Assembly (NCBI GenBank): GCA_044337585.1
Contig: JBIINH010000001.1
Coordinates: 9,087 to 73,086 of the forward strand
DNA: 64,000 nucleotides
Reading direction: 5' to 3'
From: Bacteroidia bacterium
GTDB lineage: Bacteria; Bacteroidota; Bacteroidia; UKL13-3
Positions 15,803 through 63,933 of this stretch are shown piece after piece (within the stretch, counting starts at the first letter, position 1; each line of letters begins with the position of its first letter). The position numbers and the translations under genes were made by a program. Below the pieces are notes generated by a model, which saw only the letters and a program-made list of their open reading frames with translations, did no database searches and was not told the DNA's origin.

Positions 15803-16006
15803 CTAGCGGCAACATTTTGCATCATCTTCTTCGTTTAGCTCTCGTTCAACACACATTTTATCGCCATTTGGAATTTCTTCTTTGTTGTCGAAAGCCAAAT
15901 TAGTAGATTTATAATCAGCAACTTGTGAATTGAAAGCGACATTTGAATATGAGGCGTATGCCTGACACAGCAAGAAGGCAAATAAAATGTATATCCTCAG
16001 TTTCAT
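15803..16006 (-). CDS. small secreted Cys-containing protein (hypothetical)
   Basis: 67 aa with an N-terminal signal peptide (MKLRIYILFAFLLCQAYA) and a C-terminal CxxxxxxxxxxxCC pattern. It lies in an otherwise empty 900-bp intergenic region. Unsupported by homology. Confidence 0.25.
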   Translation of the reverse strand: MKLRIYILFAFLLCQAYASYSNVAFNSQVADYKSTNLAFDNKEEIPNGDKMCVERELNEEDDAKCCR

Positions 16007-17716: not shown

Positions 17717-17872
17717 TAAAGTTGATAATTATTAAACAACAATACGTAAATGAGTTTTCACAATTGGTAACAAAAGTTACGTATCTCAACAATATACTTT
17801 TTTAATGCTTGTGCTTAACAACATGAAGGATAGGGTGAAAGCATTATGCTTTTGCAAAACGAATAGAGAAAT

Positions 17873-19879
17873 CTACAACTGAACCCTATTTTTTTTGTAA
17901 AAAAGGTCCATACTTAATACATGTGGAATGCTGATGCAAGAAAGTAGAATAAAGAAAATGCTAATATAATCTGCACGGTTTAGCAACATAAATGCAACGA
18001 TTATAAATGCACCACCCATGCTAAATGGAAGCGATTTTTTCCAAAGTTGATACGTATTGGTTTTTAATGCTGTTTTTAAATGGCTCCATCCATGAAAGCT
18101 GTGTTGAATAACAAAGTATATGCCAAATGAAACTAGTAATGGCAACATACTTGAAATAAGGAGGTAGCTGAAAGTTAGAGCCATGCGCTTAGACTTATTG
18201 TAAACAATCATCAATATTGAAAGCATAGAAACGATAAGTTTCGAATACAATATTATTGGTTGGGTTAATGTTTGTAAATAGGTGTTAAGTTTCAAACCTT
18301 TTATGTGTTCAAGAACTGAAAGTGTTTCTTCGAAATGGAAAATCAAAATGAGCGCAAGCACCGATAGTCCCCACAAAAAAGAATTAGGGCCTTGTTTTAA
18401 ATTCCACTCATTGGTATCAGCTTGTCCGAAATGCCAAGCCGAGTATGCAATAAATGTAATTAATGCCAAATCGGGTAGGATAAACCAAATAGCGCCTAAC
18501 AAAGCGCCTTTGGCAAGATAGGCTGCAATAAATTTGATAAATTGCCTCTGCCCGTTAATTTTCTGATCGGTTAAATGATCAACTGCACCATGTGATAAAC
18601 CAATTGTTAAAAAGCCCAAACCTAAGAAAATCCAAAGTACTTCTTGCCATTGATTTATGTGCAAAAACAAAGATGCGAGTGTGAAGAGAAGTGCAGCTAA
18701 AGTGGGGGTGAGTGCAGATATTTTGTAGCTCACATCTTTTACTGCGGTTTTTAAAAAAAGTGCGATAGGGAGTTTCGAAAAAATATGAATCTCGTTAGGT
18801 ATACTTGTTTTTTCATTTAAAAAAGTGAGAACCTTAGAGATGGGAATATTTGTGAATAAGCATTGAAAAATTTCTTTGCCTCGGCTGGGTGATAATTCTA
18901 AAATTTTAAGTAATAACCTATCGTAGAATTTAAATCTAGAAATACGATTATTGCGTTTATATAATTCTCCTTTTTGGATTGCCTCGGCTAGGCTTTTAGC
19001 ATCTTTAGCCATAGCATGAAAAGCATATCCAGTTGAGGGTTTTATCATATTTGCTTTTGCACCCGTATATAACCAATTTGCTCCATAATGATTATTGGCT
19101 ATTGTTGCCGAAGACATTGGAACCACACCTATCTCTTTGTCTAAAATAGTATAGTTGATTCCCAATTTTTGGATATACTCTTTAAATATGATTTCGGCAT
19201 CATGCTTGGAGATAATCTCTTTACCAAATCTAGTAATTTCAAATAGCGCAGTGCGATCTGTGAATGGGAGTATATACATAAATTGGCATGCATCATTTTG
19301 TGCAATGTCAAAATCCATCATCGTTGCTGTGCTAGTATCAAATTCAGCATTTGTTGTTTGAATTTCCCAACCATAAAAAGATTGGTACAAATGGCTTTGG
19401 TTGTTTTTAGGTGGAGAAAATATAGGTGGTCGGCTGTCGAATACTTTTTGGGCAATTATTTTGTCATTTCCTACATCAACCTGATATGAGTTGTTGTTGA
19501 GTATGTTTGGTTCGTTGCTAAGTGAGGTTGTGTAGAATTGAGTTGTTTCCTTCTTTAGGATTTCTTTGGCTTTGTTGTATAAATCTATTCCCTTGATATG
19601 GAAATAATTTAGGGGAGTGATGTGCTGTTTCAAGCCATTCACGTTAATGTGGCTCCATGATGAACTGATGAGTTGTTGAAGATTTAGTTCAGATACTTCT
19701 TCTTCACTTGTCCAGAAACAGAAGGTTCTGTCATTTACATTTTTGCTACTAGGTTCAATTACAGCAATCTTTTTATCCTTCAATAGGCCTTTTTCAAACA
19801 AGTTAAGCAACAACAAAGAATTGGCTGCTCCTAATCCAATAAATAGGAAGTCAACTTCGATGTTCATATTACTTTTCAT
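17873..19879 (-). CDS. fusion protein with an N-terminal CrtY-type lycopene beta-cyclase domain and a C-terminal Brp/Blh beta-carotene 15,15'-dioxygenase domain
   Basis: N-terminal about 380 aa has the FAD/Rossmann motif DFLFIGLGAANSLLL and the CrtY blocks (DRTFCFW, QFMYILPF...LFEITRF, KPSTGYAF). C-terminal about 290 aa is a 7-TM domain with conserved His residues (GAVDH, WHFGQAD, QHSFHGWSH) typical of Blh. It is one uninterrupted 668-aa ORF. Confidence 0.8.
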   Translation of the reverse strand: MKSNMNIEVDFLFIGLGAANSLLLLNLFEKGLLKDKKIAVIEPSSKNVNDRTFCFWTSEEEVSELNLQQLISSSWSHINVNGLKQHITPLNYFHIKGIDLYNKAKEILKKETTQFYTTSLSNEPNILNNNSYQVDVGNDKIIAQKVFDSRPPIFSPPKNNQSHLYQSFYGWEIQTTNAEFDTSTATMMDFDIAQNDACQFMYILPFTDRTALFEITRFGKEIISKHDAEIIFKEYIQKLGINYTILDKEIGVVPMSSATIANNHYGANWLYTGAKANMIKPSTGYAFHAMAKDAKSLAEAIQKGELYKRNNRISRFKFYDRLLLKILELSPSRGKEIFQCLFTNIPISKVLTFLNEKTSIPNEIHIFSKLPIALFLKTAVKDVSYKISALTPTLAALLFTLASLFLHINQWQEVLWIFLGLGFLTIGLSHGAVDHLTDQKINGQRQFIKFIAAYLAKGALLGAIWFILPDLALITFIAYSAWHFGQADTNEWNLKQGPNSFLWGLSVLALILIFHFEETLSVLEHIKGLKLNTYLQTLTQPIILYSKLIVSMLSILMIVYNKSKRMALTFSYLLISSMLPLLVSFGIYFVIQHSFHGWSHLKTALKTNTYQLWKKSLPFSMGGAFIIVAFMLLNRADYISIFFILLSCISIPHVLSMDLFYKKNRVQL

Positions 19880-19896
19880 GATTGTAGTGTTAGTTT

Positions 19897-19935
19897 AAAA
19901 AAAGAAGACACCTGTTATAATAAACAGATGTCTTC
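19897..19935 (-). terminator. rho-independent terminator downstream of the rhodopsin gene
   Basis: On the minus strand: 12-bp stem (gaagacatctgt/acaggtgtcttc, one mismatch), 8-nt loop, then a TTTTTTT run. It sits between the rhodopsin stop (19957) and the crtY-blh start (19879). Confidence 0.55.
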
Positions 19936-19956
19936 TTCAATTTCTTTTGTAAAGGA

Positions 19957-20673
19957 TTAGTCTTCAGTTCTGCTTAAAGCATAAATTACTAAACCAAAAC
20001 CAATTTTGTTAATGGCATCTGCAATATTGTAAACGATGTCCATAGCTTTGAGTGCTGCAGTAGTATCTGATACTAATTGCATTCCAAATAATCCACCTGG
20101 AGTTCCCAAAATGTAACCTAGTGGATAAATAGCCCATCCCACTAGAACAAACCATCCTAAAATCTTGGTTGCTTTGGCTACTTGTGCACCTGCATTTTGC
20201 GAAAGTTGCGCAACTTCTCCAAACCATACCAAATAAACAATGTAGAAATAAGCGATACCAGATAAAACTCCCCACAATACACTTCCGTCTCTGTCTAAAA
20301 CTTCACCTACATAACCAGTAACCAACATCACAAGTGATGCAAAAATAAGTTTCCATAATAACCCAATCTTAGCACCCGCTTTTTTGGTGATTAAATAAAA
20401 CTCAACACACATTAATGGCACTGTCAATATCCAATCTACATAACGGAAGAAGGTTGGAGAATCACCAGTTTCTAAATTGTAACCTCTCATGTAGTAGTAA
20501 TGTACTGCTGCGATAAAGGTAATAAGTCCAGAAACAAGGACTGAAGTGCGCCATTTTTGAGAAGTGTTGCCTAACTCAAAAAAGAAGAATACAGATGCGG
20601 CCATCATGGCCATAGTTCCGATAAAAAATGTGAATGCCACATAATTATCACTAGCGATTTTTAAGTGTTCCAT
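19957..20673 (-). CDS. microbial rhodopsin, proteorhodopsin/xanthorhodopsin-type light-driven proton pump
   Basis: Seven-TM protein. Helix C reads RYVDWILTVPLMCVEFYL, giving Asp proton acceptor, Thr, Glu proton donor (DTE motif) and Met at the position-105 tuning site. Helix G carries the Schiff-base Lys in DAINKIGFGL. Confidence 0.9.
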   Translation of the reverse strand: MEHLKIASDNYVAFTFFIGTMAMMAASVFFFFELGNTSQKWRTSVLVSGLITFIAAVHYYYMRGYNLETGDSPTFFRYVDWILTVPLMCVEFYLITKKAGAKIGLLWKLIFASLVMLVTGYVGEVLDRDGSVLWGVLSGIAYFYIVYLVWFGEVAQLSQNAGAQVAKATKILGWFVLVGWAIYPLGYILGTPGGLFGMQLVSDTTAALKAMDIVYNIADAINKIGFGLVIYALSRTED

Positions 20674-20992
20674 GTTTATTTGTTTAATTATTGTTACGAA
20701 GACTTGAACAAGATGAGTTCTTTAAAAGTTTTTATATTTTGTTTGTTTAAGACATATTATTTTTGTTTAATTAAACTTAAACAGTCTCTAAAGGCTTGTT
20801 ATTCCTGATAGTTTACTGTTTTTTATTCACAGGTTAACTTTTATTTAATCAAAAAATTTAAGTTAGTTTTAATGTGCAAAATAAAAATGATATTAGGTTT
20901 AGTTAATAATATAGGACAGACTTTAACCTCTTTTTTAAGTCTATTTATAAGGAAAAAGAAGCAGACGTGGGTTGTAAAGTAAATTTGTAACT

Positions 20993-21922
20993 TTAGCTAT
21001 TCGTCTGTGTATGTTTATCTGTATTTTTATAGGAATTGTGTATGAGCAATATTAAGTACCCAAATACAACTGCACTAATTATGAGTGCATTATTAATTAA
21101 TCCTTCCACCGAAAATGACAATTTGATCAGTATTGTAGAGATGACAAAGCCTGAATTACGAATGATGGTATGAAAACTGTCTGAATAGAAAAATGAAAAC
21201 AAAAGCAATAGCACATCAATGATGATTAGGAGAATAAAAAAGTCTTCAAAAAATACATTGTTGATGTACTTAAATGTGGTGATATCGTTCCAATTGCTTT
21301 GATTACTTATAATAATCCATTGTGCAAACGAGTATAAAGCAAGGATGATAACTATAGGTATCAATACTTTTGCAATGATATTCTTCAGTTGTATAAATGT
21401 GCCAATTCGTAGCTTTTCAACTTCGCTTTTGTTTGTGCTGCTGTTCAGTGAGAATTTCTCGAGGTTGCGGTAAAATTGTTGAATTAAGAAAAATAGAATA
21501 ATGGCCGTTGCCAAATCATAGGTAAACTGAAGGTCATTTTGAAGATTAAACCAGTTGGAAGACATTTCAATATTCCCAATGTCTTTGAAAATTCTACGGA
21601 TTACTATGAGGGTGATGATTTCGTATTGCTTACCTATGTATGTAGAGGTGGATTTTGGTAAATAATAAACCAAAAGAAAAACTTCATAAACAAGAATAAA
21701 AGAGAAAGGGGTGTAAACAGCAGATATTGGATTTTTAGTGAGTTTGGAATTAAGGTGAATGATATCTTCGCTTACCAAAAAAATTACAGATAAGTGTAAG
21801 AGAAAACTGATTATTGCAATCCAAATTGTGGTTTGCTCTAGTTTTTCCCTGAACTTGTCAGTAAGTAAATGATTGAAAATATTTAGCATTTTTATCAAAC
21901 TAATCCATTTCGGATTAATCAC
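20993..21922 (-). CDS. polytopic membrane protein of unknown function (about 8 TM)
   Basis: 309 aa, very hydrophobic, with no recognisable channel or transporter signature. It lies directly upstream of, and co-directional with, the rhodopsin gene. Confidence 0.5.
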   Translation of the reverse strand: MINPKWISLIKMLNIFNHLLTDKFREKLEQTTIWIAIISFLLHLSVIFLVSEDIIHLNSKLTKNPISAVYTPFSFILVYEVFLLVYYLPKSTSTYIGKQYEIITLIVIRRIFKDIGNIEMSSNWFNLQNDLQFTYDLATAIILFFLIQQFYRNLEKFSLNSSTNKSEVEKLRIGTFIQLKNIIAKVLIPIVIILALYSFAQWIIISNQSNWNDITTFKYINNVFFEDFFILLIIIDVLLLLFSFFYSDSFHTIIRNSGFVISTILIKLSFSVEGLINNALIISAVVFGYLILLIHNSYKNTDKHTQTNS

Positions 21923-22038
21923 AAGTAAACATAGAATACCTATTTAAGTTTACAATGATGCGTTTTTATTGCGGATTTACTTTAAACGAGGGAACGTGCC
22001 ACTGACATATTTGATAAAAATTGGATATTGAAAAGAGG

Positions 22039-22749
22039 TTACAATGTATTCAGCAGCTGTTCCATCATTTTGCCGTTCCACTTGCCATGAAACTTGTAAG
22101 GAACAAATCGGGCAAACATTTCCTCATTATACCAATTGAGTTTTCGGGTGAGTTGCACAACTTCCTTATGATGTTGATTTTTATAGGCATAATCCATCAT
22201 TTCTGCTTTAGTCTTCCATACGCTTAAGGTTGCTTGCTGTATCAAAGGCCATTCGCCCACACCAATGGATAATACTAGTCCCGTGTAATTTTCTAAGCTT
22301 TTACTCACTTTGCCCACTTTGCTCCAAAACGAAAGCAGTTTCGAGAAACGGATTGTGGCCCTTGTTAAAACCATTACAGGTTTATCTGCTACCAATTGGG
22401 CAGATTGCTCGAAAGGTTGCATTCCATCCCATTTGCCATGTACCTCAGCTGCTTGAGCATAAACCGTAAAATATTCTGTACTTTTTGATTGGTATTTTTT
22501 TAAGTAGTTTTTTGTAGTTAAAAATTGATTAGCTGCTTCTTCAGATTTCCAAACACACAACAAAACGTAAGTGCCAAAGTTGGGTATTGCACTAAATCCA
22601 TTCTTTGCTCCGGAGCCTAATAATTTATAGAAAACCAATCCATCTGCTCCCTTTATAGATTTGTGGCCGAATTGCATTTGGGTAAATGCCCACAATTTAT
22701 TTCTCAAACCCTCTAATTTAAAGAATGTACAGGTTGTAATTTGATTCAT
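22039..22749 (-). CDS. CrtA-like (spheroidene monooxygenase / carotenoid 2-hydroxylase-like) protein, tentative
   Basis: 236 aa. The N-terminal pattern (TCTFFKLEGLRNKLWAFTQMQFG...FYKLLGSG) recalls the CrtA/CrtA-OH family. Assignment is from memory of the family, not from a search. Confidence 0.4.
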   Translation of the reverse strand: MNQITTCTFFKLEGLRNKLWAFTQMQFGHKSIKGADGLVFYKLLGSGAKNGFSAIPNFGTYVLLCVWKSEEAANQFLTTKNYLKKYQSKSTEYFTVYAQAAEVHGKWDGMQPFEQSAQLVADKPVMVLTRATIRFSKLLSFWSKVGKVSKSLENYTGLVLSIGVGEWPLIQQATLSVWKTKAEMMDYAYKNQHHKEVVQLTRKLNWYNEEMFARFVPYKFHGKWNGKMMEQLLNTL

Positions 22750-22796
22750 TTATATATATAGATTTGAAATAGGAAGTTATTCTTATCAAAACAAAA

Positions 22797-23717
22797 TTAT
22801 TTTTTTTCTACCACAATGAGTTGGATACCGAATGGTAACAATTTTTCGAAAACAAATAGGGGTATTGTATATACCTTACGGAATACAAGTGGCCAAAATT
22901 CTTTTTCCATATTTCCCGACCAATTGATGCTTTTTTTCTCCATTATTCCCAACCACCATAGGGTAAAGGCGTCTAATGTTCCCAGCCGTAAGTATTTCAC
23001 AATATTCCATTTCTTTTTGTCAAACAAAACTTCAAAACTCTTTTGAGAAAATAAGGATAAGTGACGTGGACTATGCCAACCTTGCCAATATTGTTTTTGT
23101 ATTTTAGCAGTAAGGCTCTTGTAATCGGGAACTTCGATTATTAGTTTGCCCCCAGGTTCCAATAAGCCATATAGTTTTTCAATAGTTTCTATTGGTTGGT
23201 AATCATGCTCCAAATAATGCCATAGCGTAATGATATCGAATTTATTTATTGTGTCAAATGCTTCGATTGACGAATTGACTAACGTGATGTTTTCTACTTT
23301 TTTATTTTCCCATCCTGCATCCGAAAAATCAATTCCGGTACATGAAAAGTTAAGTTGTTTTTGCAAAACTTCTAAAAATGTGGGATTACCACAACCCACA
23401 TCTAAAATACGCACCTGTTTATTATTTGCGCCAACCCATCTTTTTACAAAGCGAACCCGTCTGATATCAAGTTGCTTTTGGCTTTTATCAACAAAGGAAG
23501 CGAACTTTCCCCATGCTTTCGATCCTTTATAAGGTAGATAGTTTTCGGTATAGTAAGTGGCTAAATTTTTTTCTGAAACAGGATTGGATAAAAATACCAA
23601 TTCGCATTGATTGCATTTATAAAAATGATACTGTTCATTATTTTTTTTGTGCATTAATGCACTGGTTGTAATATAAAATGAAGCACCGGCTTGATTACAA
23701 ATAGGGCAGCTAAACAT
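22797..23717 (-). CDS. class I SAM-dependent methyltransferase with N-terminal zinc ribbon
   Basis: CxxC...CxxC N-terminal zinc ribbon. SAM motif I (ILDVGCGNPTF) and a Methyltransf_13-like C-terminal region. Confidence 0.7.
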   Translation of the reverse strand: MFSCPICNQAGASFYITTSALMHKKNNEQYHFYKCNQCELVFLSNPVSEKNLATYYTENYLPYKGSKAWGKFASFVDKSQKQLDIRRVRFVKRWVGANNKQVRILDVGCGNPTFLEVLQKQLNFSCTGIDFSDAGWENKKVENITLVNSSIEAFDTINKFDIITLWHYLEHDYQPIETIEKLYGLLEPGGKLIIEVPDYKSLTAKIQKQYWQGWHSPRHLSLFSQKSFEVLFDKKKWNIVKYLRLGTLDAFTLWWLGIMEKKSINWSGNMEKEFWPLVFRKVYTIPLFVFEKLLPFGIQLIVVEKK

Positions 23718-27380: not shown

Positions 27381-27452
27381 GGTCTCGTAGTACAACGGAT
27401 AGTATTTGGGTCTCCGGAACCCAAGATTCAGGTTCGATTCCTGACGAGACCG
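27381..27452 (+). tRNA. tRNA-Arg (anticodon CCG)
   Basis: Cloverleaf folded by hand: 7-bp acceptor stem (GGTCTCG/CGAGACC), D-arm, anticodon stem TGGGT/ACCCA with loop CTCCGGA (anticodon CCG), T-arm TCAGG-TTCGATTC-CCTGA, discriminator G. A T-run follows. Confidence 0.85.
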
Positions 27453-38120: not shown

Positions 38121-41100
38121 TTAATTATCAGATGGAGCTATTTTTTTATTTGAAGCTTCTTCAGAAGCAATAATTACTTTGAGTTTTTCGGATGCAATTG
38201 ATTTCACATCTTCACCGTCATAGTTTTCTAAAATACTTTGCAGGGTGGCTTTGGCTTGGAAATTATCTTTTTCAGCTACATACACGTCAGCCAAAAGTAA
38301 GTATGATTTTGCAACCCAATATTCGTGTACAGATAGGTTATCTGCAATATCAAAAATTGTTTTCTTGCATGCCTTTAAGTCTTTACGTAGGTATTGTATA
38401 AATGCAATTTGGTATTTCGATTCAGCCGCCCATATATTTTTGGTTTCTTTCGCCACAAACTGATAGTCAATCATTGCCGAATCAATCTGATTGCGTGATT
38501 GATAGAACCTTGCCATGTTTAAGCGGGCTTCAATAATTCCATCTTTTTGCGTTACGGTGGAGTTTAAATAACGAATGGAAGCCGCAGCTGCAGCTTCGGT
38601 ATTCCCTAATTGGGCTGCCGATTTAATTTGACCAGTTAAGGCAATGCTTAAGTTATCGCGGTTGCTGGCAATGCGCTCAAGGGAAGCGTAATTATCGAGT
38701 GCTTTCGCAAAATTCTTTTTCATATAATACAATACGGCCGTTTGTCTGGTAGACTTCTCTGTAAATTCATTTCTGTTTTGTAATGAAACGAACTCATAGC
38801 AAACCAAGGCACTATCATAATTTTTTAAGCTGAAATCACATTCTGCTTTATAGTAATTGGCACGTAAAATAAAAAAGCCTCCAGGGAAACGGTTTATATA
38901 GTTACCAAAAAGTTTGCTTGATTTATTGCAATCACCCGATTTGTATGCATTAAATGCCGACTCATATGTTATTGAATCTTGGTATGTAGGTGATAGCTCT
39001 ACATTTGGCAATACTTTTACATATTCCAAATAGCCATCGGCATCTGAGTTTGATACAAAAATATTTTTCGCTACCATCAATGCATCTCTTGCTTCAGGTG
39101 TGTTTGGATATTCGGTAATCAGTTGTTTGAAAACCTCTAATGCTTCTTTGTCACGATTGGTATTATAATAGCACAAGCCTTTGTTTTGAATGGCTTTACG
39201 CAAGTATTGGCTTCTTGGGTAGTTATCAATAATATTTTGGTAACCTGTTATGGCATCATTGAAACGTTCACTTTGCATTTTAACTAAAGAAATTTCATAA
39301 ACAGCATCATCGATATAGGTTGATTTTTTGTATTGGTTTATGATCACCGAGAGCATGGCTATTTTATCATCTGGCCTATTTAAAACCCCATAAATCGTGG
39401 CTTTTTGATATAATGCATAGTCGCTGCCATTCAAATTTTTTTCTGTAATAAAGCTGTATTGGTCAAGTGCTTTTTGATATTGCCTAAGCACCAAATAGCA
39501 ATCAGCAATACGCATATTGGCATCGGTATAAATTTCAATATTGTTTAAGGCATATTCTGTTGCTGTAAATTTTTTCATTTCGGAAATACAATTGTCATAA
39601 TCTTCTACTTTTAGGTGGCTATAGGCCATATTGTAAAATGACAGTGGGTAGAAACGAGTATCTTTTACCTCAGGATATTTTTGGAAGTTTTTGTACAAAC
39701 GAATGCTCTCAGCAAATTGTCCTTCACGAAAAGCGATTTCAGCAAGCCAAAAAGAAGCAAGTGCATATAGTTTTTTATCCAATTCATACAATTGCGATTT
39801 CGTGAAGGTTGATTTGGCGCCTACGTAATCATTATTTAAATATAATTCTTCGGCTCGGTAATAACAAACACGCTGGTAAGCAAGCTGGGTGGTTGTATTT
39901 GGTTTGTTGATGCTTTCGATTATTGGAATGGCATCTTTATAGTTTTTGGTTGCCGTAAGCAAATCAGACATCATGCTTTTTGCTTCATCAATTATATCAG
40001 AAGAAGAATAATCATTTACAAACTTTACCAAGTCTTTTAGTGCTTCTTGTTGAAACGATAATTCGAAAGAAAGTTTTGCATGATTAAACAAAGACAACTC
40101 TGTAACTTGTGAATTAAATCCATTGTGATAAGCTCTATCGAATGCCAATCGGGCAGCTTGCTTTTGATTTGTAGCCAAGTAAGCTTCGGCCAAGTGATAG
40201 CTTGCAAACTGCGAAGTGGAATCTTTTTCTATTGCAATTTTACTAAGATATTCAATTGCTTTTGCATGATCACCTACTCGTAAGTATGAATAACCTAGCC
40301 TATATATATCTTGGTTTGTTTTTCCATTAGGCGATTTGCTATGAAACCTTTCTAGGAATGGCAAGGCTTTATTATAATTGCCAAGTTGAAAGTAAGACTG
40401 ACCCACAATACCAGCAACGTCATTTACTATTTCTTTATTGGTAATGGTATCGGCAAAGCTTACCACATCAACATATTTTTTCTGGGCAAAATAAATCTGC
40501 GCAATATATACCTGTGATAGTCCACCAAAGATTTTGTTTTTTCCTACTTTTGTAAAGTGCTCCAATGCCTGTTCATACTTACCTTCACGGTAAATGATGT
40601 ATCCATAATAATAGTTGGCACTTTCTAAATATTTATTCGGGTTGTCAATGATATTTCCGAGACTTTTCTTTGCATTTTCAAAATCATCTAATTTAAAATA
40701 GCAATATCCTTTGATAAAAAACATATGCTCCGCTTGTTCAGGAGTAAGGTCTTCGGCACCTACTAGTGAAAGGTATTTTACAGCATTTTTATTGTCTTTG
40801 AGTCGATAAAAATATTTGCCTAGTTGAAAAAGAGCAGGTTTTGATTTTGAGTGGTCGGTATATTGGGTACCAACCTTAAGCAATAAATTTACGGCATCAG
40901 GGTTGAGCAACTCCATGGCACAAACACCTGCAAAATAGTAGGCATTAATTTTCATCTCTCGCTCGGTCGTCCGTTCGGCAAACATGATGAAATGTTTTTG
41001 CGCCTCTCCAAACATATCATGGTTGTAAAGTTCGGTAGCCCGATTGTAAATGCGTTGGTTATTTGCATACACCTCACTTTTTTGCGCAAATGAAAGTGTA

Positions 41101-41153
41101 GTGAGCAAGCAAAACAATATTGTGATGGTAAATTTGTGAATCTGATTTCGCAT
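38121..41153 (-). CDS. tetratricopeptide-repeat protein (about 1010 aa, secreted)
   Basis: Signal peptide and multiple TPR-like helical repeats throughout. Confidence 0.8.
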   Translation of the reverse strand: MRNQIHKFTITILFCLLTTLSFAQKSEVYANNQRIYNRATELYNHDMFGEAQKHFIMFAERTTEREMKINAYYFAGVCAMELLNPDAVNLLLKVGTQYTDHSKSKPALFQLGKYFYRLKDNKNAVKYLSLVGAEDLTPEQAEHMFFIKGYCYFKLDDFENAKKSLGNIIDNPNKYLESANYYYGYIIYREGKYEQALEHFTKVGKNKIFGGLSQVYIAQIYFAQKKYVDVVSFADTITNKEIVNDVAGIVGQSYFQLGNYNKALPFLERFHSKSPNGKTNQDIYRLGYSYLRVGDHAKAIEYLSKIAIEKDSTSQFASYHLAEAYLATNQKQAARLAFDRAYHNGFNSQVTELSLFNHAKLSFELSFQQEALKDLVKFVNDYSSSDIIDEAKSMMSDLLTATKNYKDAIPIIESINKPNTTTQLAYQRVCYYRAEELYLNNDYVGAKSTFTKSQLYELDKKLYALASFWLAEIAFREGQFAESIRLYKNFQKYPEVKDTRFYPLSFYNMAYSHLKVEDYDNCISEMKKFTATEYALNNIEIYTDANMRIADCYLVLRQYQKALDQYSFITEKNLNGSDYALYQKATIYGVLNRPDDKIAMLSVIINQYKKSTYIDDAVYEISLVKMQSERFNDAITGYQNIIDNYPRSQYLRKAIQNKGLCYYNTNRDKEALEVFKQLITEYPNTPEARDALMVAKNIFVSNSDADGYLEYVKVLPNVELSPTYQDSITYESAFNAYKSGDCNKSSKLFGNYINRFPGGFFILRANYYKAECDFSLKNYDSALVCYEFVSLQNRNEFTEKSTRQTAVLYYMKKNFAKALDNYASLERIASNRDNLSIALTGQIKSAAQLGNTEAAAAASIRYLNSTVTQKDGIIEARLNMARFYQSRNQIDSAMIDYQFVAKETKNIWAAESKYQIAFIQYLRKDLKACKKTIFDIADNLSVHEYWVAKSYLLLADVYVAEKDNFQAKATLQSILENYDGEDVKSIASEKLKVIIASEEASNKKIAPSDN

Positions 41154-46220: not shown

Positions 46221-46631
46221 ATGGATACCAAGGAAACAACATTTCAATTGGTGAATTTGCCAAAGTTTTTAGATGAACGGGGAAACCTTTCATTTATAGA
46301 AGCCAAAAGACAGGTGCCATTTGATATTGCTCGCTCATATTGGATATACGATGTGCCTGGAGGTGAAACACGCGGTGGGCACAGTTATTATCAAAATGAA
46401 GAATTGATAGTTGCACTCTCTGGCAGCTTTGATGTGGTGATTGATGATGGCAAACAATCGCATAAAATTTCACTCAACCGATCTTATTACGGTTTGTATA
46501 TTCCAAAAGGATTTTGGCGTCACATGGAAAATTTTTCCACCAATGCATTGGCGCTTGTGCTAGCATCAACTGCATTTGATGCTTCCGATTATGAAAGAGA
46601 CCACGAACGATATATCAATAGCAAAGCATGA
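46221..46631 (+). CDS. FdtA/WxcM-like sugar 3,4-ketoisomerase cupin (paralog 1, divergent active site)
   Basis: WxcM-like C-terminal/FdtA cupin fold. The catalytic His-x-His position reads GHSYY. Confidence 0.7.
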   Translation: MDTKETTFQLVNLPKFLDERGNLSFIEAKRQVPFDIARSYWIYDVPGGETRGGHSYYQNEELIVALSGSFDVVIDDGKQSHKISLNRSYYGLYIPKGFWRHMENFSTNALALVLASTAFDASDYERDHERYINSKA

Positions 46632-47047
46632 TTAAGAAACCATCTGTATATGATTGCTCTTTGGTTCAGTTACCAAAAATACATTTTAGGGCTGGCAACA
46701 TAACTCCCGTGCATGGCAACAAAGAAATACCATTTGATATCAAACGTGTATTTTATTTATATGATATTCCAGGAGGAGAGTCAAGAGGTGCCCATGCACA
46801 TTTTGAATGCCATCAGTTTTTAATTGCTGCAAGCGGGAGCTTCGAAGTATTATTAGATGATGGAAAGGTGAAAAGACAAGTGCAGCTCAACCAACCTTAT
46901 ATCGGCTTACACATTCCACCAATGATTTGGGCATCTGAAGTCAATTTTTCATCAGGTGCCATTTGTTTGGTGATGGCCTCTCATGGCTATAATGAATTAG
47001 ATTATATACGCGATTACAATACATTTTTGAAGGAGGTAAATCGATGA
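46628..47047 (+). CDS. FdtA/WxcM-like sugar 3,4-ketoisomerase cupin (paralog 2, canonical HxH)
   Basis: Same fold with a canonical RGAHAHFE His pair. ATGA overlap with paralog 1. Confidence 0.75.
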   Translation: MIKKPSVYDCSLVQLPKIHFRAGNITPVHGNKEIPFDIKRVFYLYDIPGGESRGAHAHFECHQFLIAASGSFEVLLDDGKVKRQVQLNQPYIGLHIPPMIWASEVNFSSGAICLVMASHGYNELDYIRDYNTFLKEVNR

Positions 47048-54209: not shown

Positions 54210-55496
54210 ATGAGAGCCAAATTAAATAGTATATTAACCTCTCAATTCTTTTCGGTATCCGTTTTTACATCTTTATCAACTGCAATAAAATTAATCACTT
54301 CATTTCTTTCCGCAAAAATTATAGCAATTTATATAGGACCAGAAGGGCTTGGTATGTTGGGGCAGCTGAGTAGTTTTATTGCTATTGCTTTATCTGGATC
54401 AACGGGTGCTATTAATAATGGGGTTATTAAATATTTATCAGAATACCAAGATGACGAAGTAAAGCAACACAGAATTTTAAATGCATCACTTAAAATAACC
54501 TTGATGGGTTCTATAATTACTGGAAGTATTTCCATAATTTTTTCCAGCTTTTGGTCAACATTATTGTTTAATGAATTAGCTTATTCCTATATCTTTATCG
54601 TTTTAGGAGCAACCCTATTTTGCCATGCTATATTTATGTTATTCTCGTCAGTGCTAAATGGCTTGAGGGAATACCGAAAATATAATCAATTAGCTATTGT
54701 GGCAAGTATGTTGGGCTTAATTACCACATACTTGTTTATACGCTATTATGGAATTAGAGGTGGCATGATTTCTCTTGTATTATATCAAGCTTTTGTATTT
54801 GTAGCTGTTTTAATATTTTATAAAAGTTTAAGAAGAATTCAGTGGCGAAATATTTGGAAACAAAAAGCCCTCCAATCTGATTACAAATCACTGATGGCAT
54901 TTTCAATTATGGCATTGGTAACAACAGCAATAACTCCTGCAACACAAATTTTTATAAGGAAATACATGGGTATTCATACCAGTGCTATTGAAGTAGGTTT
55001 TTATGAAGGCGTACTTCGAATTTCACAATTGTACTTACTAATCATAACCACAACACTTTCTGTATATTATTTGCCAAAACTTTCAGGAATTAAAAACGCA
55101 GCATTACTTAGATCTGAATTAGGAAAGGGGTATAGTTACATTCTTCCTGCTACAGCCCTAATTCTTGTTGTTGTTTTTCTACTACGGTACTTTGTAATAA
55201 ACATTGTGTTTGCCCCTAGTTTTGAGCCAATGGCGGATTATTTTATACCACAATTGATAGGAGATTTTTTTAAAATTGGCAGTTGGTTATTGGCTTTCTT
55301 AATGATTGCAAAAGCAAAAACAAAACTTTACATCACAACGGAACTTCTTTTTGGTGGATTTTTAATACTGCTTTCCGTACTAGGCATTCAATATTTTGGA
55401 GCAATAGGAGCCATCTATGCTTATGCCTTAAATTATATGCTGTATTTTGTTTTGATGATTTTTGTATTCAGTAAAATAATTTGGCTGAAACGATGA
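54210..55496 (+). CDS. Wzx-type oligosaccharide flippase (MOP superfamily)
   Basis: About 12-TM polysaccharide biosynthesis protein. Start moved to the first ATG (54210, MRAKLNS...) because the track start is TTG. Confidence 0.75.
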   Translation: MRAKLNSILTSQFFSVSVFTSLSTAIKLITSFLSAKIIAIYIGPEGLGMLGQLSSFIAIALSGSTGAINNGVIKYLSEYQDDEVKQHRILNASLKITLMGSIITGSISIIFSSFWSTLLFNELAYSYIFIVLGATLFCHAIFMLFSSVLNGLREYRKYNQLAIVASMLGLITTYLFIRYYGIRGGMISLVLYQAFVFVAVLIFYKSLRRIQWRNIWKQKALQSDYKSLMAFSIMALVTTAITPATQIFIRKYMGIHTSAIEVGFYEGVLRISQLYLLIITTTLSVYYLPKLSGIKNAALLRSELGKGYSYILPATALILVVVFLLRYFVINIVFAPSFEPMADYFIPQLIGDFFKIGSWLLAFLMIAKAKTKLYITTELLFGGFLILLSVLGIQYFGAIGAIYAYALNYMLYFVLMIFVFSKIIWLKR

Positions 55497-56608
55497 AGAA
55501 ACAAAACATACTATTGGTTGGGGAATTCAGCAATGTGCATTGGACACTGGCCGAAGGTTTAAGAAGCCTTGGTCATCAAGTTGATGTAGCTTCAAAAGGT
55601 GATGGATGGAAAGGGTATAAACGTGATATTGACTTATCATTTAAAAATAAGTTAGATGTAATGCGATTTTTCCTTGAATTATTTTTTACCAAAAAGTTTA
55701 GTGGCTATGATGTTGTACAATTAATCAATTTCAGGTTTTTGTATCCAGAGGAAAGAGATTTGTACAATAAAATTATATTTAATGTCTTAAGGAAAAGAAA
55801 TAAATCTGTGTTCCTTGCTGCTTACGGGGATGATTACTATTGGTCTTCTGCTTGCAGGAGTGGCGCATTTCCATATTCGCCTTACGATGCATTGGATAAA
55901 GGATATGCACCAAATGTGTATTATGACCAAATGATGCAATTGAATAATTTTGCCTCACGTGAGTTGAATGAAATGATGGCACAAAAATCAAATGGAATTA
56001 TTGCAGGACTTTATGATTATTATTACAGTTATGCCATTTCATCATTTAAGAACAAATTGGAGTTTATTCCCTTTCCGATAAATACGAAAGAGATTAGCTA
56101 CAAAAAAAATACATTGAATCAAGGCGAAAAGATGCGCATATTTATGGGGATTCAAACCCAACGTTCTGTATGGAAAGGAACTGACGTGTTGTTGCAGGTA
56201 TTAACCGAATATGTAGCAAAATACAGCGATGAAATGGAATTGATAATTGCTGAAAGTGTACCTTTTGACACCTACATCAAAATGTATGAAGATGCGCATG
56301 TTTTTGTAGATCAGTTATATTCCCAAGGGTTTGCCATGAATGCGCTTTATGCGATGGCAAAGGGTAAAGTAGTACTGAGTGGAGGCGAAAATAAAATGTA
56401 TGCGCTTTATGGAGATTCAGAAATCGAAAAACCTGTGATTAATATTGTGCCTGAAAAAGAAAAGATTATTGGGGTATTGGATCAGATAAGGCAAAACAAA
56501 AACCGATTGGAAGAGATGGGATTAGCATCACGAAAGTTTGTTGAACAATATCATGATTATAAAGTAGTAGCCAGACAGTACGTGCAAGTATGGGAGAGTG
56601 CCATATGA
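55493..56608 (+). CDS. glycosyltransferase-like protein (GT4-like fold, divergent)
   Basis: Start at ATG 55493 in an ATGA overlap with the wzx stop. GT-B-like C-terminal region. Weak family assignment. Confidence 0.5.
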   Translation: MKKQNILLVGEFSNVHWTLAEGLRSLGHQVDVASKGDGWKGYKRDIDLSFKNKLDVMRFFLELFFTKKFSGYDVVQLINFRFLYPEERDLYNKIIFNVLRKRNKSVFLAAYGDDYYWSSACRSGAFPYSPYDALDKGYAPNVYYDQMMQLNNFASRELNEMMAQKSNGIIAGLYDYYYSYAISSFKNKLEFIPFPINTKEISYKKNTLNQGEKMRIFMGIQTQRSVWKGTDVLLQVLTEYVAKYSDEMELIIAESVPFDTYIKMYEDAHVFVDQLYSQGFAMNALYAMAKGKVVLSGGENKMYALYGDSEIEKPVINIVPEKEKIIGVLDQIRQNKNRLEEMGLASRKFVEQYHDYKVVARQYVQVWESAI

Positions 56609-60921: not shown

Positions 60922-63900
60922 TTGATTCACCAAACCAAAATAGCGTTTGTTTCCAACTCATCATATAGCATGTATTATTTCCGTAAAGGAGTGCTAATTG
61001 ACATGATTGCTAATGGGCACGAAGTGCATCTTATCACTCCTTACGATTTTAAAACCCAGGATCTAATTGATATGGGGTGTATTCACCACGCAGTTAATTT
61101 CTCTACAAAATCATTAAATCCACTAGCAGATCTGACTTTGTTTTTTAAGCTGTTAAGCACATACAAAAGAATAAGGCCTGATATGATATTTCATTACACC
61201 ATTAAGCCAAATATTTATGGTACGGTGGCCGCAAAAATGTTATTTATTAAGTCTATTGCAATTGTTACGGGTTTGGGCTATGCCTTCATCAACAATACAT
61301 GGATTAATCGTTTGGTACAGATGATGTATAAACTAGCGCTTGGTATGGCTCACCAAGTGTGGTTTTTAAATGATACCGATATCAATCACTTTATTGACAA
61401 TAAAATTGTTCGTAAATCATCTACATTCCATTTGCCAGGAGAAGGTGTAAATACAGAGGAGTATAGATTAAGTATTATGCCTCAAAAAAAAGTATTTACC
61501 TTTTTGCTTATTGCTCGAATGTTAAAGGATAAAGGTGTGTATGAATATGTGCAAGCAGCTGAACAAATTAAACTGCAATATCCAAACTGTAGGTTTCAAT
61601 TATTAGGTCCTACAGATAGTGATAATCCCTCTGCCATTTCATTTGCTCAAATAAACAATTGGAGTAATAGCGGTGTGGTTGAATATTTAGGAACTGCAAA
61701 TGATGTGAGGCCATTTATTGAAAAAGCAGATTGTATAGTATTGCCCTCATATCGTGAAGGTATTTCAAAGGTATTGATGGAAGCGGCTAGTATGGGAAGG
61801 CCATTAATTGCATCTAATGTGCCCGGTTGTATAGAGTTGATTGATGAAGAAAAAAATGGTTTTATAGTTGAAGCAAGGAGTGCAAAAAGTCTTGAGGATG
61901 GTATGTTGCGGATGATGCAAGTGCCGTATGACGTACGATTGAGAATGGGATTATATAGCCGAGAAAAAATACGCAATGAGTTTGATGAAAAAATCATTGT
62001 TGATATTTACAACAAGGTAATTCGCCAAAATATAGATGGAAGGAATGTTGTGGCTTATGTAGTGAATACGGACTGGTTTTTTATTTCACATCGTTTGCCA
62101 CTTGCGATAGAAGCTAAACAAATAGGGTTCAATCCTGTAGTTATTTCAACAGATACTGGAAAAGCAGATGAGATTAGAAAATATGGTATCACATTCATTG
62201 ATTTAAACTTGACCCGAAGCGGGATTAATCCCATTACGGAGTTTAAAGTGGTGTGGAGATTACTGATAATTTATTTAAAGTATAAGCCAGTTATAGTACA
62301 TCATGTAACTATTAAACCTGTGCTTTACGGAACACTTGCTGCAAGTCTTAGCTTCTACAAGATTCGAGTTGTCAATGCAATTAGTGGGCTTGGTTATGCT
62401 TTTATCAATACATATAAAACACTTTCATTTTGGGCCATTCGTTTTTTAATGAGGGTTTTATTCAAATCCAAGCAAGTGAACTATATATTTCAAAATCCTG
62501 ACGACTTGGCATTTTACGAAAAACTTGGATACCTCTCTGCCTCAAACTATACATTGATAAGGGGTGCGGGCATTGATATAGAGAAATGGAAGTTCTCTAA
62601 ACCAAACCCCAAGCCCAAAATTAGGGTTGTTTTTTCAGGTAGGATGCTTCAAGATAAAGGAATTATGGAGTTTATTAATGCAGCTACACTGCTGTATGAT
62701 AAATGGAAAGACAAAGCTGAATTTGTTATGGTTGGCGGCACTGATATAGGTAATCCAAAATCATTGAATGAAACAGACATTGCAAAATACTTAATTCCCG
62801 ATTACTTAATTTGGGAGGGCCACCAAGAGGACATGCTTACACAATGTGAGTTAGCCGATATTTTTTGTTTGCCATCATACAGAGAAGGATTACCCAAATC
62901 AATATTAGAAGCAATGTCGGTTGGTAGGCCTATCGTAACCACCGATGTGCCAGGCTGTAGGGAATGTGTTGATCAAAATATAAACGGCTTTTTGGTGCCA
63001 GTTAAAAATAGCGTGGCTTTAGCAGATGCAATCGACAACTTACTTTTTGATGAGCCACTCAGGTTACGGATGGGAGAAGCCTCCCGCAGAAAAGCGGAAA
63101 AAGAATTTTCACTTGAAACTGTTAAGCATCAGACATTCGAGTTCTATCAGAAGATTTTGAAACGAGACATCCTAAAAAAAGCCGTATCTCCAAAAATAAC
63201 AGTGATTACAGCTGTCTACAACAATAAGCGATTTATTAAGGATGCCATCGAGTCTGTTTTAAGTCAAACGTATGGCAATATTGAATATATCATAATTGAT
63301 GGTGGCTCTACAGACGGCAGTATTGAAATCATTAACCAATATGCAGATCGAATCAATTTAATTGTGTCAGAACCTGATAAAGGCTTATATGATGCACTAA
63401 ACAAAGGTATTTCAGTTGCAACAGGAGATGTTATCGGCATTATGCATTCCGATGATTTTTATGCCCACAGAAACGTACTAAGCAAAGTAGCTCGAAAATT
63501 TGCCACTAATACCGAGGCCGTATTCGGGGATTTAGATTATGTAAGCAATCACGATTCGCAAAAGATTATTAGAAAATGGCGCACCCAAAAATACTCAAAA
63601 ACCAAATTTAAGTCCGGGTGGATGCCTCCACATCCTACCGTGTTTATTCGTAAAGCCATATTAGTGAAATTTGGGGCCTACAATACGTCCCTTCGTTCTT
63701 CAGCAGATTACGAATTGTTGCTTAGGTTATTTTACCTACACCATATAAACGTTAATTTCTTGAAGGATGTATTGGTAAAAATGAGAATTGGCGGGCAAAG
63801 TAACCGAACTTTGGGAAATAGAATTCGCGCACATATTGAAGATTACAAAGCATGGAAAACAGCGGGATTAAAACCAGCACTGTACACTATGTGGTTCAAA

Positions 63901-63933
63901 CTTTTACGAAAACTGCCTCAATATCGTTTCTAG
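60922..63933 (+). CDS. tri-domain glycosyltransferase (GT4-GT4-GT2 fusion, 1003 aa)
   Basis: Two internally similar GT4 modules (IKPNIYGTVAAKMLFIKSIAIVTGLGYAFIN vs IKPVLYGTLAASLSFYKIRVVNAISGLGYAFIN, each ending in SYREG..K..LEAM) followed by a GT2 domain (ITVITAVYN...IIIDGGSTD). Non-ATG (TTG) start per the track. Confidence 0.75.
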   Translation: MIHQTKIAFVSNSSYSMYYFRKGVLIDMIANGHEVHLITPYDFKTQDLIDMGCIHHAVNFSTKSLNPLADLTLFFKLLSTYKRIRPDMIFHYTIKPNIYGTVAAKMLFIKSIAIVTGLGYAFINNTWINRLVQMMYKLALGMAHQVWFLNDTDINHFIDNKIVRKSSTFHLPGEGVNTEEYRLSIMPQKKVFTFLLIARMLKDKGVYEYVQAAEQIKLQYPNCRFQLLGPTDSDNPSAISFAQINNWSNSGVVEYLGTANDVRPFIEKADCIVLPSYREGISKVLMEAASMGRPLIASNVPGCIELIDEEKNGFIVEARSAKSLEDGMLRMMQVPYDVRLRMGLYSREKIRNEFDEKIIVDIYNKVIRQNIDGRNVVAYVVNTDWFFISHRLPLAIEAKQIGFNPVVISTDTGKADEIRKYGITFIDLNLTRSGINPITEFKVVWRLLIIYLKYKPVIVHHVTIKPVLYGTLAASLSFYKIRVVNAISGLGYAFINTYKTLSFWAIRFLMRVLFKSKQVNYIFQNPDDLAFYEKLGYLSASNYTLIRGAGIDIEKWKFSKPNPKPKIRVVFSGRMLQDKGIMEFINAATLLYDKWKDKAEFVMVGGTDIGNPKSLNETDIAKYLIPDYLIWEGHQEDMLTQCELADIFCLPSYREGLPKSILEAMSVGRPIVTTDVPGCRECVDQNINGFLVPVKNSVALADAIDNLLFDEPLRLRMGEASRRKAEKEFSLETVKHQTFEFYQKILKRDILKKAVSPKITVITAVYNNKRFIKDAIESVLSQTYGNIEYIIIDGGSTDGSIEIINQYADRINLIVSEPDKGLYDALNKGISVATGDVIGIMHSDDFYAHRNVLSKVARKFATNTEAVFGDLDYVSNHDSQKIIRKWRTQKYSKTKFKSGWMPPHPTVFIRKAILVKFGAYNTSLRSSADYELLLRLFYLHHINVNFLKDVLVKMRIGGQSNRTLGNRIRAHIEDYKAWKTAGLKPALYTMWFKLLRKLPQYRF

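Follow-up and report, generated by a model that had tools for sequence, protein, structure and literature searches.

How do rhodopsin-bearing Bacteroidota set the ratio of opsin to the enzymes that make its retinal, and how do they control transcription of the opsin gene? Both questions are raised by a rhodopsin locus of a Bacteroidia bacterium of freshwater type (contig JBIINH010000001.1), analysed here within a stretch of 64,000 nucleotides (nt), hereafter the window, whose positions serve as coordinates throughout. An earlier interpretation drawn from the DNA alone (the sequence-only reading) had described five minus-strand genes, encoding in order a methyltransferase, a CrtA-like protein, an uncharacterised membrane protein, a rhodopsin and a CrtY-Blh protein, and had placed a stem-loop with a T run between the last two. 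All five open reading frames (ORFs) were confirmed, in that order and on that strand (Table 1), and the stem-loop proved to be the strongest structure of its kind in the 64 kb. We propose, with a probability of roughly 0.55, that the opsin gene is transcribed from a promoter element of its own, that transcription is partially terminated behind it, and that crtY-blh depends on the resulting leak.

Read on the minus strand, the hairpin comprises a 16-bp stem at 19938-19901 that includes 5 G-C pairs and closes a 6-nt loop; its G/C-containing core (19935-19904) is followed by TTTTTTT at 19903-19897. It begins 19 nt past the opsin stop, and the T run lies 17 nt from the crtY-blh ATG, in a spacer of 77 nt. 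The predicted folding energy (dG) is -22.1 kcal/mol (z-score -5.25), none of 200 shuffled sequences folded as well, and among hairpin-plus-T-run candidates on both strands of the window it ranks first, with a core of -17.8 kcal/mol as against -11.1 kcal/mol for the next. The spacers that follow the crtY-blh, membrane-protein and CrtA-like genes, and that following a gene for a protein sorted through type IX secretion (T9SS), fold no better than shuffles. The built-in promoter and terminator scan did not list the hairpin, apparently owing to an A-rich upstream flank that can pair with part of the T run, and its promoter matches stood at chance level (35 found, 42 expected). We rejected the notion of a repeated or mobile element, as the hairpin sequence has no second copy within the window.

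Relatives of the locus were drawn from a scan of species-representative genomes, which yielded 80 loci (L001-L080), all from Bacteroidota-type metagenome-assembled genomes (MAGs); together with the window and L081, a JGI contig (3300071635, Ga0620599_000192) with the same five-gene order and a CrtY-Blh 88% identical to that of the window, 82 sequences were compared. The opsin gene is directly upstream of, and co-directional with, crtY-blh in approximately 50 loci, from which 41 opsin-to-crtY-blh spacers were assembled, that of the window included. The sequence-only reading had named a hairpin not conserved in relatives as one outcome that would refute it, and this outcome did not occur: a hairpin is kept in all 41 spacers (dG -14 to -32 kcal/mol, median -21.3), beginning 10-37 nt past the opsin stop and followed in nearly every case by a T run. 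Stem sequences are unrelated between lineages, and an RNAalifold alignment of 20 spacers contains compensatory changes in 11 of the 12 consensus pairs; the L081 hairpin differs from that of the window by two substitutions, both in the loop, its stem being unchanged. The hairpin is a genuine, conserved structure of the intrinsic-terminator type. A hairpin and T run also lie 3' of all eight opsin genes that have no crtY-blh behind them, in divergent or convergent layouts, and the terminator is therefore a property of the opsin gene generally, and not a device that evolved specifically between opsin and crtY-blh.

Upstream of the opsin gene, the sequence-only reading had posited an AT-rich leader of 320 bp that presumably carries the promoter, and had suggested a search for sigma-A elements of the Bacteroidota. 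The search, in which a promoter was defined by TAnnTTTG as its -7 box and TTTG at -33, some 19 nt further upstream, found no sigma-A promoter: TAnnTTTG does not occur within 400 nt upstream of the opsin gene, nor within 150 nt of the membrane-protein gene, and it is present ahead of eleven other genes in the window. Candidates with one mismatch, noted by eye, were set aside as uninformative, being conserved only in the close relative L081. What the opsin genes do share is a bipartite motif, [AG]AAC-N15-17-TGT[TC], of which 32 of 40 opsin genes have a single copy within the 200 nt ahead of them (shuffles, 1.5 ± 1.2); it stands before 36 of 48 opsin genes but only 4.5% of the 750 other genes of these loci. 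Its position is fixed: short leaders, that of the window (20731-20707) among them, have it at -52 to -60 relative to the ATG, and it moves to -107 to -114 where an RNA element of the DUF805 family intervenes before the ATG. In the window the motif spans 34-58 nt before the ATG and is the sole upstream element conserved across lineages. This position implies a predicted 5' untranslated region (UTR) of roughly 25-30 nt; the 319-nt AT-rich stretch is mostly intergenic spacer and not leader.

The nature of this motif bears on how the locus is understood. Promoters of extracytoplasmic function (ECF) sigma factors have, by consensus, a -35 element that ends in AAC and, 16-17 nt away, a -10 element that contains GTT or CGT, and it is on this consensus that our comparison draws: the motif, with AAC and GTT at such a spacing, fits an ECF-type pattern, as a pattern match only. 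A CGT -10 box has been reported for flavobacterial ECF-type promoters (PMC9723704). The AAC...GTT core is also an inverted repeat, and an ECF-type sigma promoter and the site of a dimeric regulator are, from the letters of the motif, equally possible. No sigma or anti-sigma genes were found among the window ORFs scanned, and a literature search for proteorhodopsin (PR) in association with ECF sigma factors found no direct precedent.

In related loci the motif is combined with the DUF805 RNA, a candidate cis-regulatory RNA of Bacteroidota, which lies in the leaders of related opsin genes and not in that of the window. Matches to RF03081 at 60-65 bits (gathering cutoff 51.1) were found in L012, L049, L058, L064 and L070, placed in the 5' UTR of orthologous opsin genes between AAAC-N16-TGTT and the ATG, and DUF805-like sequence is present in some 17 of 40 opsin leaders, as judged by sequence. 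The coordinates are L012:1950-2016, L049:9067-9134, L058:9004-9071, L064:9068-9135 and L070:2813-2880, and L037:5418-5448 is a match to DUF805b. The window has no DUF805 RNA at the gathering or a permissive threshold; across its whole length Rfam matched only a tRNA (27381-27452), with no family in the spacer or leader. A literature search found no published link between DUF805 RNA and rhodopsin genes.

Two smaller features lie within the AT-rich spacer itself. About 43 nt in its middle (20815-20860, minus strand; ACATTAAAACTAACTTAAATTTTTTGATTAAATAAAAGTTAACC) are near-invariant between the window and L081, and the flanks diverge. Just past the membrane-protein stop, at about 20910-20935 (minus strand; L081:8930-8960), the pairing of a short hairpin is kept with both arms changed, AGACTT/AAGTCT to TGTATT/AATACA, in a region that folds no better than shuffles.

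Whether crtY-blh possesses a promoter of its own is central to the proposed leak. Between the end of the hairpin and the ATG of crtY-blh lie a median of 26 nt, and fewer than 50 nt in 37 of the 41 spacers, only one of which has the sigma-A box TAnnTTTG, with the variant TAnnTTGY in two. The 77-nt spacer of the window contains neither a sigma-A box nor the AAAC-N16-GTT motif, and there is no TAnnTTTG within 150 nt of its crtY-blh gene. Over its final 100 nt the opsin gene keeps its synonymous sites no better than it does on average, which gives no sign of a conserved promoter embedded there. A relaxed form of the bipartite motif, AAAC[AT]-N15-17-GTT, precedes 13 of 26 crtY-blh genes that have no co-directional opsin gene ahead of them, 11 of them at exactly -45, as opposed to 6 of 49 behind an opsin gene (background rate 5.5%). 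Three of those six fall in opsin coding sequence and one in the hairpin; the remaining two belong to L058 and L066, loci with unusually long spacers (96-107 nt), and look like exceptions, crtY-blh having come back under a control element of its own. In both, where the spacer between opsin and crtY-blh is also given as 154-165 nt, a separate AAAC-N-GTT motif stands ahead of crtY-blh, and the hairpin of L066 is without a T run. So crtY-blh appears to carry its own element when it stands alone, and to go without one just behind the opsin terminator. These comparisons argue that crtY-blh in the latter setting has neither room for nor trace of a promoter of its own, and attenuated read-through is, for that reason, the simplest account of its expression.

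In the mechanism that we propose, the opsin gene would be transcribed from the non-sigma-A element AAAC-N16-TGTT (20731-20707) with the short 5' UTR given above; most transcripts would end at the strong terminator just past the opsin stop, and the minority of polymerases that read through would produce the sole mRNA for crtY-blh. The outcome would be abundant opsin, which is needed stoichiometrically, and little of the catalytic cyclase and dioxygenase that carry lycopene through beta-carotene to retinal. The layout of the locus, the conserved hairpin, the short spacer and the distribution of the promoter-like motif are observations, and from them we infer all three of the motif's function as promoter, the partial termination and the resulting expression ratio. 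Codon usage lends weak support to higher opsin expression: the effective number of codons is 40.9 for the opsin gene, third lowest of 51 genes, and 52.2 for crtY-blh. Weak expression of both blh and crtY is known from Dokdonia PRO95 (PMC3587595). The suggestion of the sequence-only reading, high opsin expression with attenuated read-through, matches this mechanism; the comparative data support it without proving it, and the correction needed is that the terminator is not particular to this gene pair.

Arrangements of this kind have precedents. The rplL-rpoB attenuator and the puf intercistronic hairpin are the classical operon-internal cases. As with these and with flavobacterial partial terminators, a stem-loop sits here between the gene for a bulk product and a downstream gene in low demand, and would grade expression from a single promoter; unlike them, partial termination is predicted at this locus, and opsin genes with nothing related downstream end in this type of terminator as well. 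Partial termination at predicted intrinsic terminators has been catalogued in Flavobacterium psychrophilum as '3'-PT' transcribed regions (PMC9723704). In known PR clusters, among them those of marine Flavobacteriia such as Dokdonia (PR beside blh) and of marine Gammaproteobacteria (PR-crtEIBY-blh), the opsin gene likewise adjoins the gene whose product completes retinal synthesis, and the lycopene-supplying genes crtE, crtB and crtI are, as here, found elsewhere; the present locus differs in that crtY and blh are fused, co-directional with and 77 nt behind the opsin gene, with a terminator in between. A literature search found no direct precedent for a terminator between PR and blh genes.

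Several considerations weigh against this mechanism. By the rules established in E. coli, a perfect 16-bp stem followed by seven U would be very efficient, and read-through may be too low to matter. Since opsin genes without a related downstream gene carry the same type of terminator, attenuation is not what the hairpin was selected for. With its inverted-repeat core, the bipartite motif could serve to bind a regulator instead of acting as a promoter, which would weaken the argument that crtY-blh has no promoter of its own, and the difference in codon bias between the opsin and crtY-blh genes is modest.

In an unlikely alternative, the terminator is complete and crtY-blh is transcribed from an unrecognised promoter that overlaps the hairpin and T run or the late opsin coding sequence, the two genes forming separate, abutting units. 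The hairpin looks very strong, and as the opsin terminator is the same where no crtY-blh follows, it behaves like an ordinary gene-end signal; moreover, approximately 5.5% of flavobacterial mRNAs are leaderless (PMC9723704), so that a promoter could in principle fit. Such a promoter would nevertheless have to be accommodated within a median of 26 nt past the hairpin, or in hairpin 3' arms that share no sequence. Sigma-A boxes are rare in the spacers (1/41), the synonymous sites at the opsin 3' end are under no extra constraint, and the AAAC-N16-GTT element that stands at -45 of stand-alone crtY-blh genes is not found for those behind opsin.

Distinctly less probable, in our estimation, is efficient co-transcription of the two genes, with the hairpin acting as a barrier to 3'-to-5' decay that leaves a stable opsin-only mRNA after processing, the ratio of products then being set by mRNA stability. 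The Rhodobacter puf operon offers a precedent for a decay-barrier hairpin, the anatomy fits such a barrier equally, with a stable stem-loop where the mRNA for the more abundant product ends, and the absence of a crtY-blh promoter is compatible with it. The near-universal T run after the stem is, however, a signature of termination that would be superfluous to a decay barrier, although barrier and termination are not mutually exclusive. That the hairpin plays no part in expression, being a palindrome that arose by chance or one copy of some repeated or mobile element, might be entertained because short palindromes are frequent in AT-rich intergenic DNA and the built-in scan passed over this one, but is effectively refuted by the shuffles (0/200 as good), the lack of a second copy in the window, and the hairpins of differing sequence, with compensatory changes, in all 49 related opsin 3' flanks.

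The two proteins at the core of the proposed leak were identified from their domains and key residues. The opsin has a seven-helix Bac_rhodopsin domain, and its Schiff-base lysine, K223, aligns with K216 of bacteriorhodopsin (BR) and with the NKIGFG lysine of the solved structure 9jov. In an alignment with BR, the DTE motif (D80/T84/E91: proton acceptor Asp, Thr and proton donor Glu) occupies BR positions 85/89/96, and G135 corresponds to BR W138, the position of the fenestration in xanthorhodopsin (XR-156); M88 places a Met at the colour-tuning site. By these residues the protein is classed as a proteorhodopsin of the Bacteroidota clade with a proton-pump motif, and light-driven outward pumping is predicted. 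Among solved structures, 9jov and 9jou come nearest (E = 1e-86); they are probably NM-R1 of Nonlabens marinus, to judge from residue numbering (D87, E98): D80 and E91 of the window opsin, offset by 7, become D87 and E98 of NM-R1. Myxol and zeaxanthin are reported to bind to NM-R1 and serve it as antennae, and the fenestration Gly is kept by almost all Bacteroidota PRs (bioRxiv 10.1101/2024.11.08.622755). The window opsin shares with NM-R1 the DTE motif, the Met tuning residue and the Gly at the XR-156 position; they differ in that carotenoid binding is reported for NM-R1, whereas the window opsin is known from its sequence. Across the loci, opsin proteins are 85-95% identical where CrtY-Blh proteins are 36-59% identical, and opsin third codon positions are only 40-60% identical, on which ground we reject recent horizontal transfer as the cause of this conservation; the pattern points to purifying selection of unusual strength, which may be read as an indirect sign that opsin is the more highly expressed.

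The N-terminal part of CrtY-Blh matches Pfam Lycopene_cycl over residues 10-374 (149 bits, cutoff 23.4) and falls below the cutoffs of two NCBIfam cyclase models (87 bits, cutoff 209.5; 51 bits, cutoff 215.2). The C-terminal part matches BCD (PF15461, residues 419- or 423-660, 119 bits) and the Brp/Blh model TIGR03753 (139.2 bits, cutoff 95.25). The protein is accordingly annotated, by domain content, as a lycopene beta-cyclase fused to a beta-carotene 15,15'-dioxygenase, predicted to make beta-carotene and then cleave it to retinal. Both domains are present in all of the top 120 listed database matches; the fusion is common in metagenomic Bacteroidota and its name is already used in NCBI records, and our literature searches found no paper that describes it.

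Table 1. Features of the rhodopsin locus in the window, listed in the direction of transcription.
Feature	Coordinates	Strand	Basis
Methyltransf_23 methyltransferase, N-terminal Cys-rich ribbon	22797..23717	-	Pfam, 86.7 bits
CrtA-related protein	22039..22749	-	NCBIfam spheroidene monooxygenase, 214.5 bits, cutoff 300
Promoter-like bipartite motif AAAC-N16-TGTT ahead of membrane-protein gene	21928..21951	-	Motif search
Uncharacterised helical membrane protein, 298 aa	20993..21889 (ORF reaches GTG at 21922)	-	No Pfam, NCBIfam or PDB match
AT-rich intergenic spacer, 319 nt, 23.2% GC	20674..20992	-	Base composition
Promoter-like opsin motif (AAACTTTTAAAGAACTCATCTTGTT)	20707..20731	-	Motif search; ends 34 nt before ATG
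Proteorhodopsin	19957..20673	-	Bac_rhodopsin PF01036, 143 bits
Intrinsic-terminator-type hairpin: 16-bp stem, 6-nt loop, T7 run	19897..19938	-	Folding and own scan
CrtY-Blh fusion, 668 aa	17873..19879	-	Pfam and NCBIfam
AAAC-N16-TGTT-type motif ahead of gene for T9SS-sorted 534-aa protein (tentative; may be chance)	17735..17757	-	Motif search

The remaining genes of the locus are less tightly bound to this pair. Only three gene families recur across the 82 sequences, namely crtY-blh, opsin and the membrane protein, and only the linkage of opsin and crtY-blh recurs across lineages; homologues of the methyltransferase and CrtA-like pair sit in myxol-type clusters elsewhere. We accordingly interpret the core of the locus as a two-gene unit of opsin and crtY-blh; the island of five genes in the sequence-only reading is not one co-transcribed unit, and to annotate the five as a single operon would be unwarranted. 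The same reading had held that crtE, crtB and crtI lie outside the window, and none of their domains was found among the 47 window ORFs scanned with Pfam, two of which (1685-2692 and 55481-56608) matched no family at a threshold of 1e-5; the scan left aside two ORFs of about 1000 aa (38121-41153 and 60922-63933) and two small ORFs at 46221-47047. The locus is set among housekeeping genes, a TonB-dependent receptor and a cluster for polysaccharide synthesis; these surroundings, and the window's GC content of 36.7% (as against 23.2% in the spacer at 20674-20992), fit the genome of an uncultured member of the Bacteroidota.

For the membrane-protein gene, the ATG at 21889 is the probable start, because an identical database protein (P0121) is 298 aa long. 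Its product, without a match in Pfam, NCBIfam or the PDB, belongs to a family that is very large in Bacteroidota and for which Pfam has no model. An AlphaFold2 model built from a deep alignment (predicted local distance difference test score, pLDDT, 93.1) has eight helices, and a structural search with this model gave no convincing match in the PDB. The gene is present in 9 of the 82 sequences, the window counted, where it lies after crtY-blh, before crtY-blh or before opsin, and the bipartite motif stands ahead of it only where it precedes opsin (the window, L081 and L077). We rejected the idea that the family is always linked to rhodopsin, since it stands alone in Halpernia, Pedobacter and a soil MAG; these stand-alone copies are without a promoter-like motif.

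The score of the CrtA-like protein against the spheroidene monooxygenase model (214.5 bits, equivalog cutoff 300) marks it as related to, and not an equivalog of, that enzyme, and it is probably a carotenoid 2-hydroxylase of the CrtA-OH type rather than a spheroidene monooxygenase. CrtA-OH is the carotenoid 2-hydroxylase of the flavobacterial myxol pathway (PMC11855829). Homologues with 67-74% identity belong to carotenoid clusters that also contain crtD-like, CruF (Caroten_synth), CrtZ-like and CrtY genes, and in two of three genomes, those of Flavobacterium luteum (L087:7023-8696) and a Bacteroidetes MAG (L088:7023-8702), the homologue directly follows a Methyltransf_23 gene. The window has this same succession of a Methyltransf_23 gene and a CrtA-like gene, yet, unlike in the myxol-type clusters, the pair is alone and adjoins opsin instead of crtD, cruF or crtZ. 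Given that the homologues are paired in carotenoid clusters, and that CrtA-OH is the 2-hydroxylase of the myxol pathway, the two genes most likely form a carotenoid-tailoring module for a myxol-type carotenoid. Their pairing suggests a carotenoid methylation step that is so far undescribed, and the literature yielded no published role for the methyltransferase. Beside opsin the module is found only in the lineage of the window and in L035. It could supply an antenna pigment for the Gly135 rhodopsin, a link that is circumstantial.

Proteorhodopsin photosystem loci of this type are already known, as are terminators that separate the gene for a bulk product from an enzyme gene behind it; beyond expectation are the universal opsin terminator, the apparently promoter-less crtY-blh tight behind it across some 50 loci, and a motif specific to opsin genes and distinct from sigma-A elements. 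The leak proposed here amounts to a simple, testable design of one promoter-like element, a strong terminator after opsin and a leak-dependent enzyme gene, alike in about 50 independent metagenomic loci. A broader possibility, which we put forward tentatively and regard as doubtful in its entirety, is that the opsins of a broad, uncultured Bacteroidota clade are under a dedicated and undescribed regulatory system, made up of AAAC-N16-(T)GTT (as sigma/ECF promoter or dimeric regulator site), DUF805 RNA, leak-dependent crtY-blh, a myxol-type antenna pigment supplied by the methyltransferase and CrtA-like pair, and the membrane protein as a new accessory of the photosystem. Were this so, the element would also drive stand-alone crtY-blh and, in three lineages, the adjacent membrane-protein gene, and in other lineages it would be combined with an orphan DUF805 RNA in the opsin 5' UTR. 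The non-sigma-A motif and the DUF805 RNA are handles on the regulator or ligand that governs the capture of light energy in abundant freshwater bacteria, and these two, the latter in the leaders of related opsin genes, are together with the membrane-protein family the parts most worth following.

Within the 64 kb, AAAC-N16-TGTT precedes four neighbouring minus-strand genes and no others: those of the opsin, the membrane protein, the T9SS-sorted protein and a 67-aa ORF (motif at 16058-16035). From its distribution the motif may be the sign of a small regulon, controlled by an alternative sigma factor or else by a dimeric regulator, and the copies ahead of the T9SS-sorted and 67-aa genes may be due to chance, given a background of 5%. 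The 67-aa ORF (15803-16006, minus strand) has an N terminus resembling a signal peptide and a Cys-rich C terminus, and is preceded, besides AAAC-N16-TGTT, by a perfect TATATTTG box at -15; L081 carries a called 67-aa gene at the matching position.

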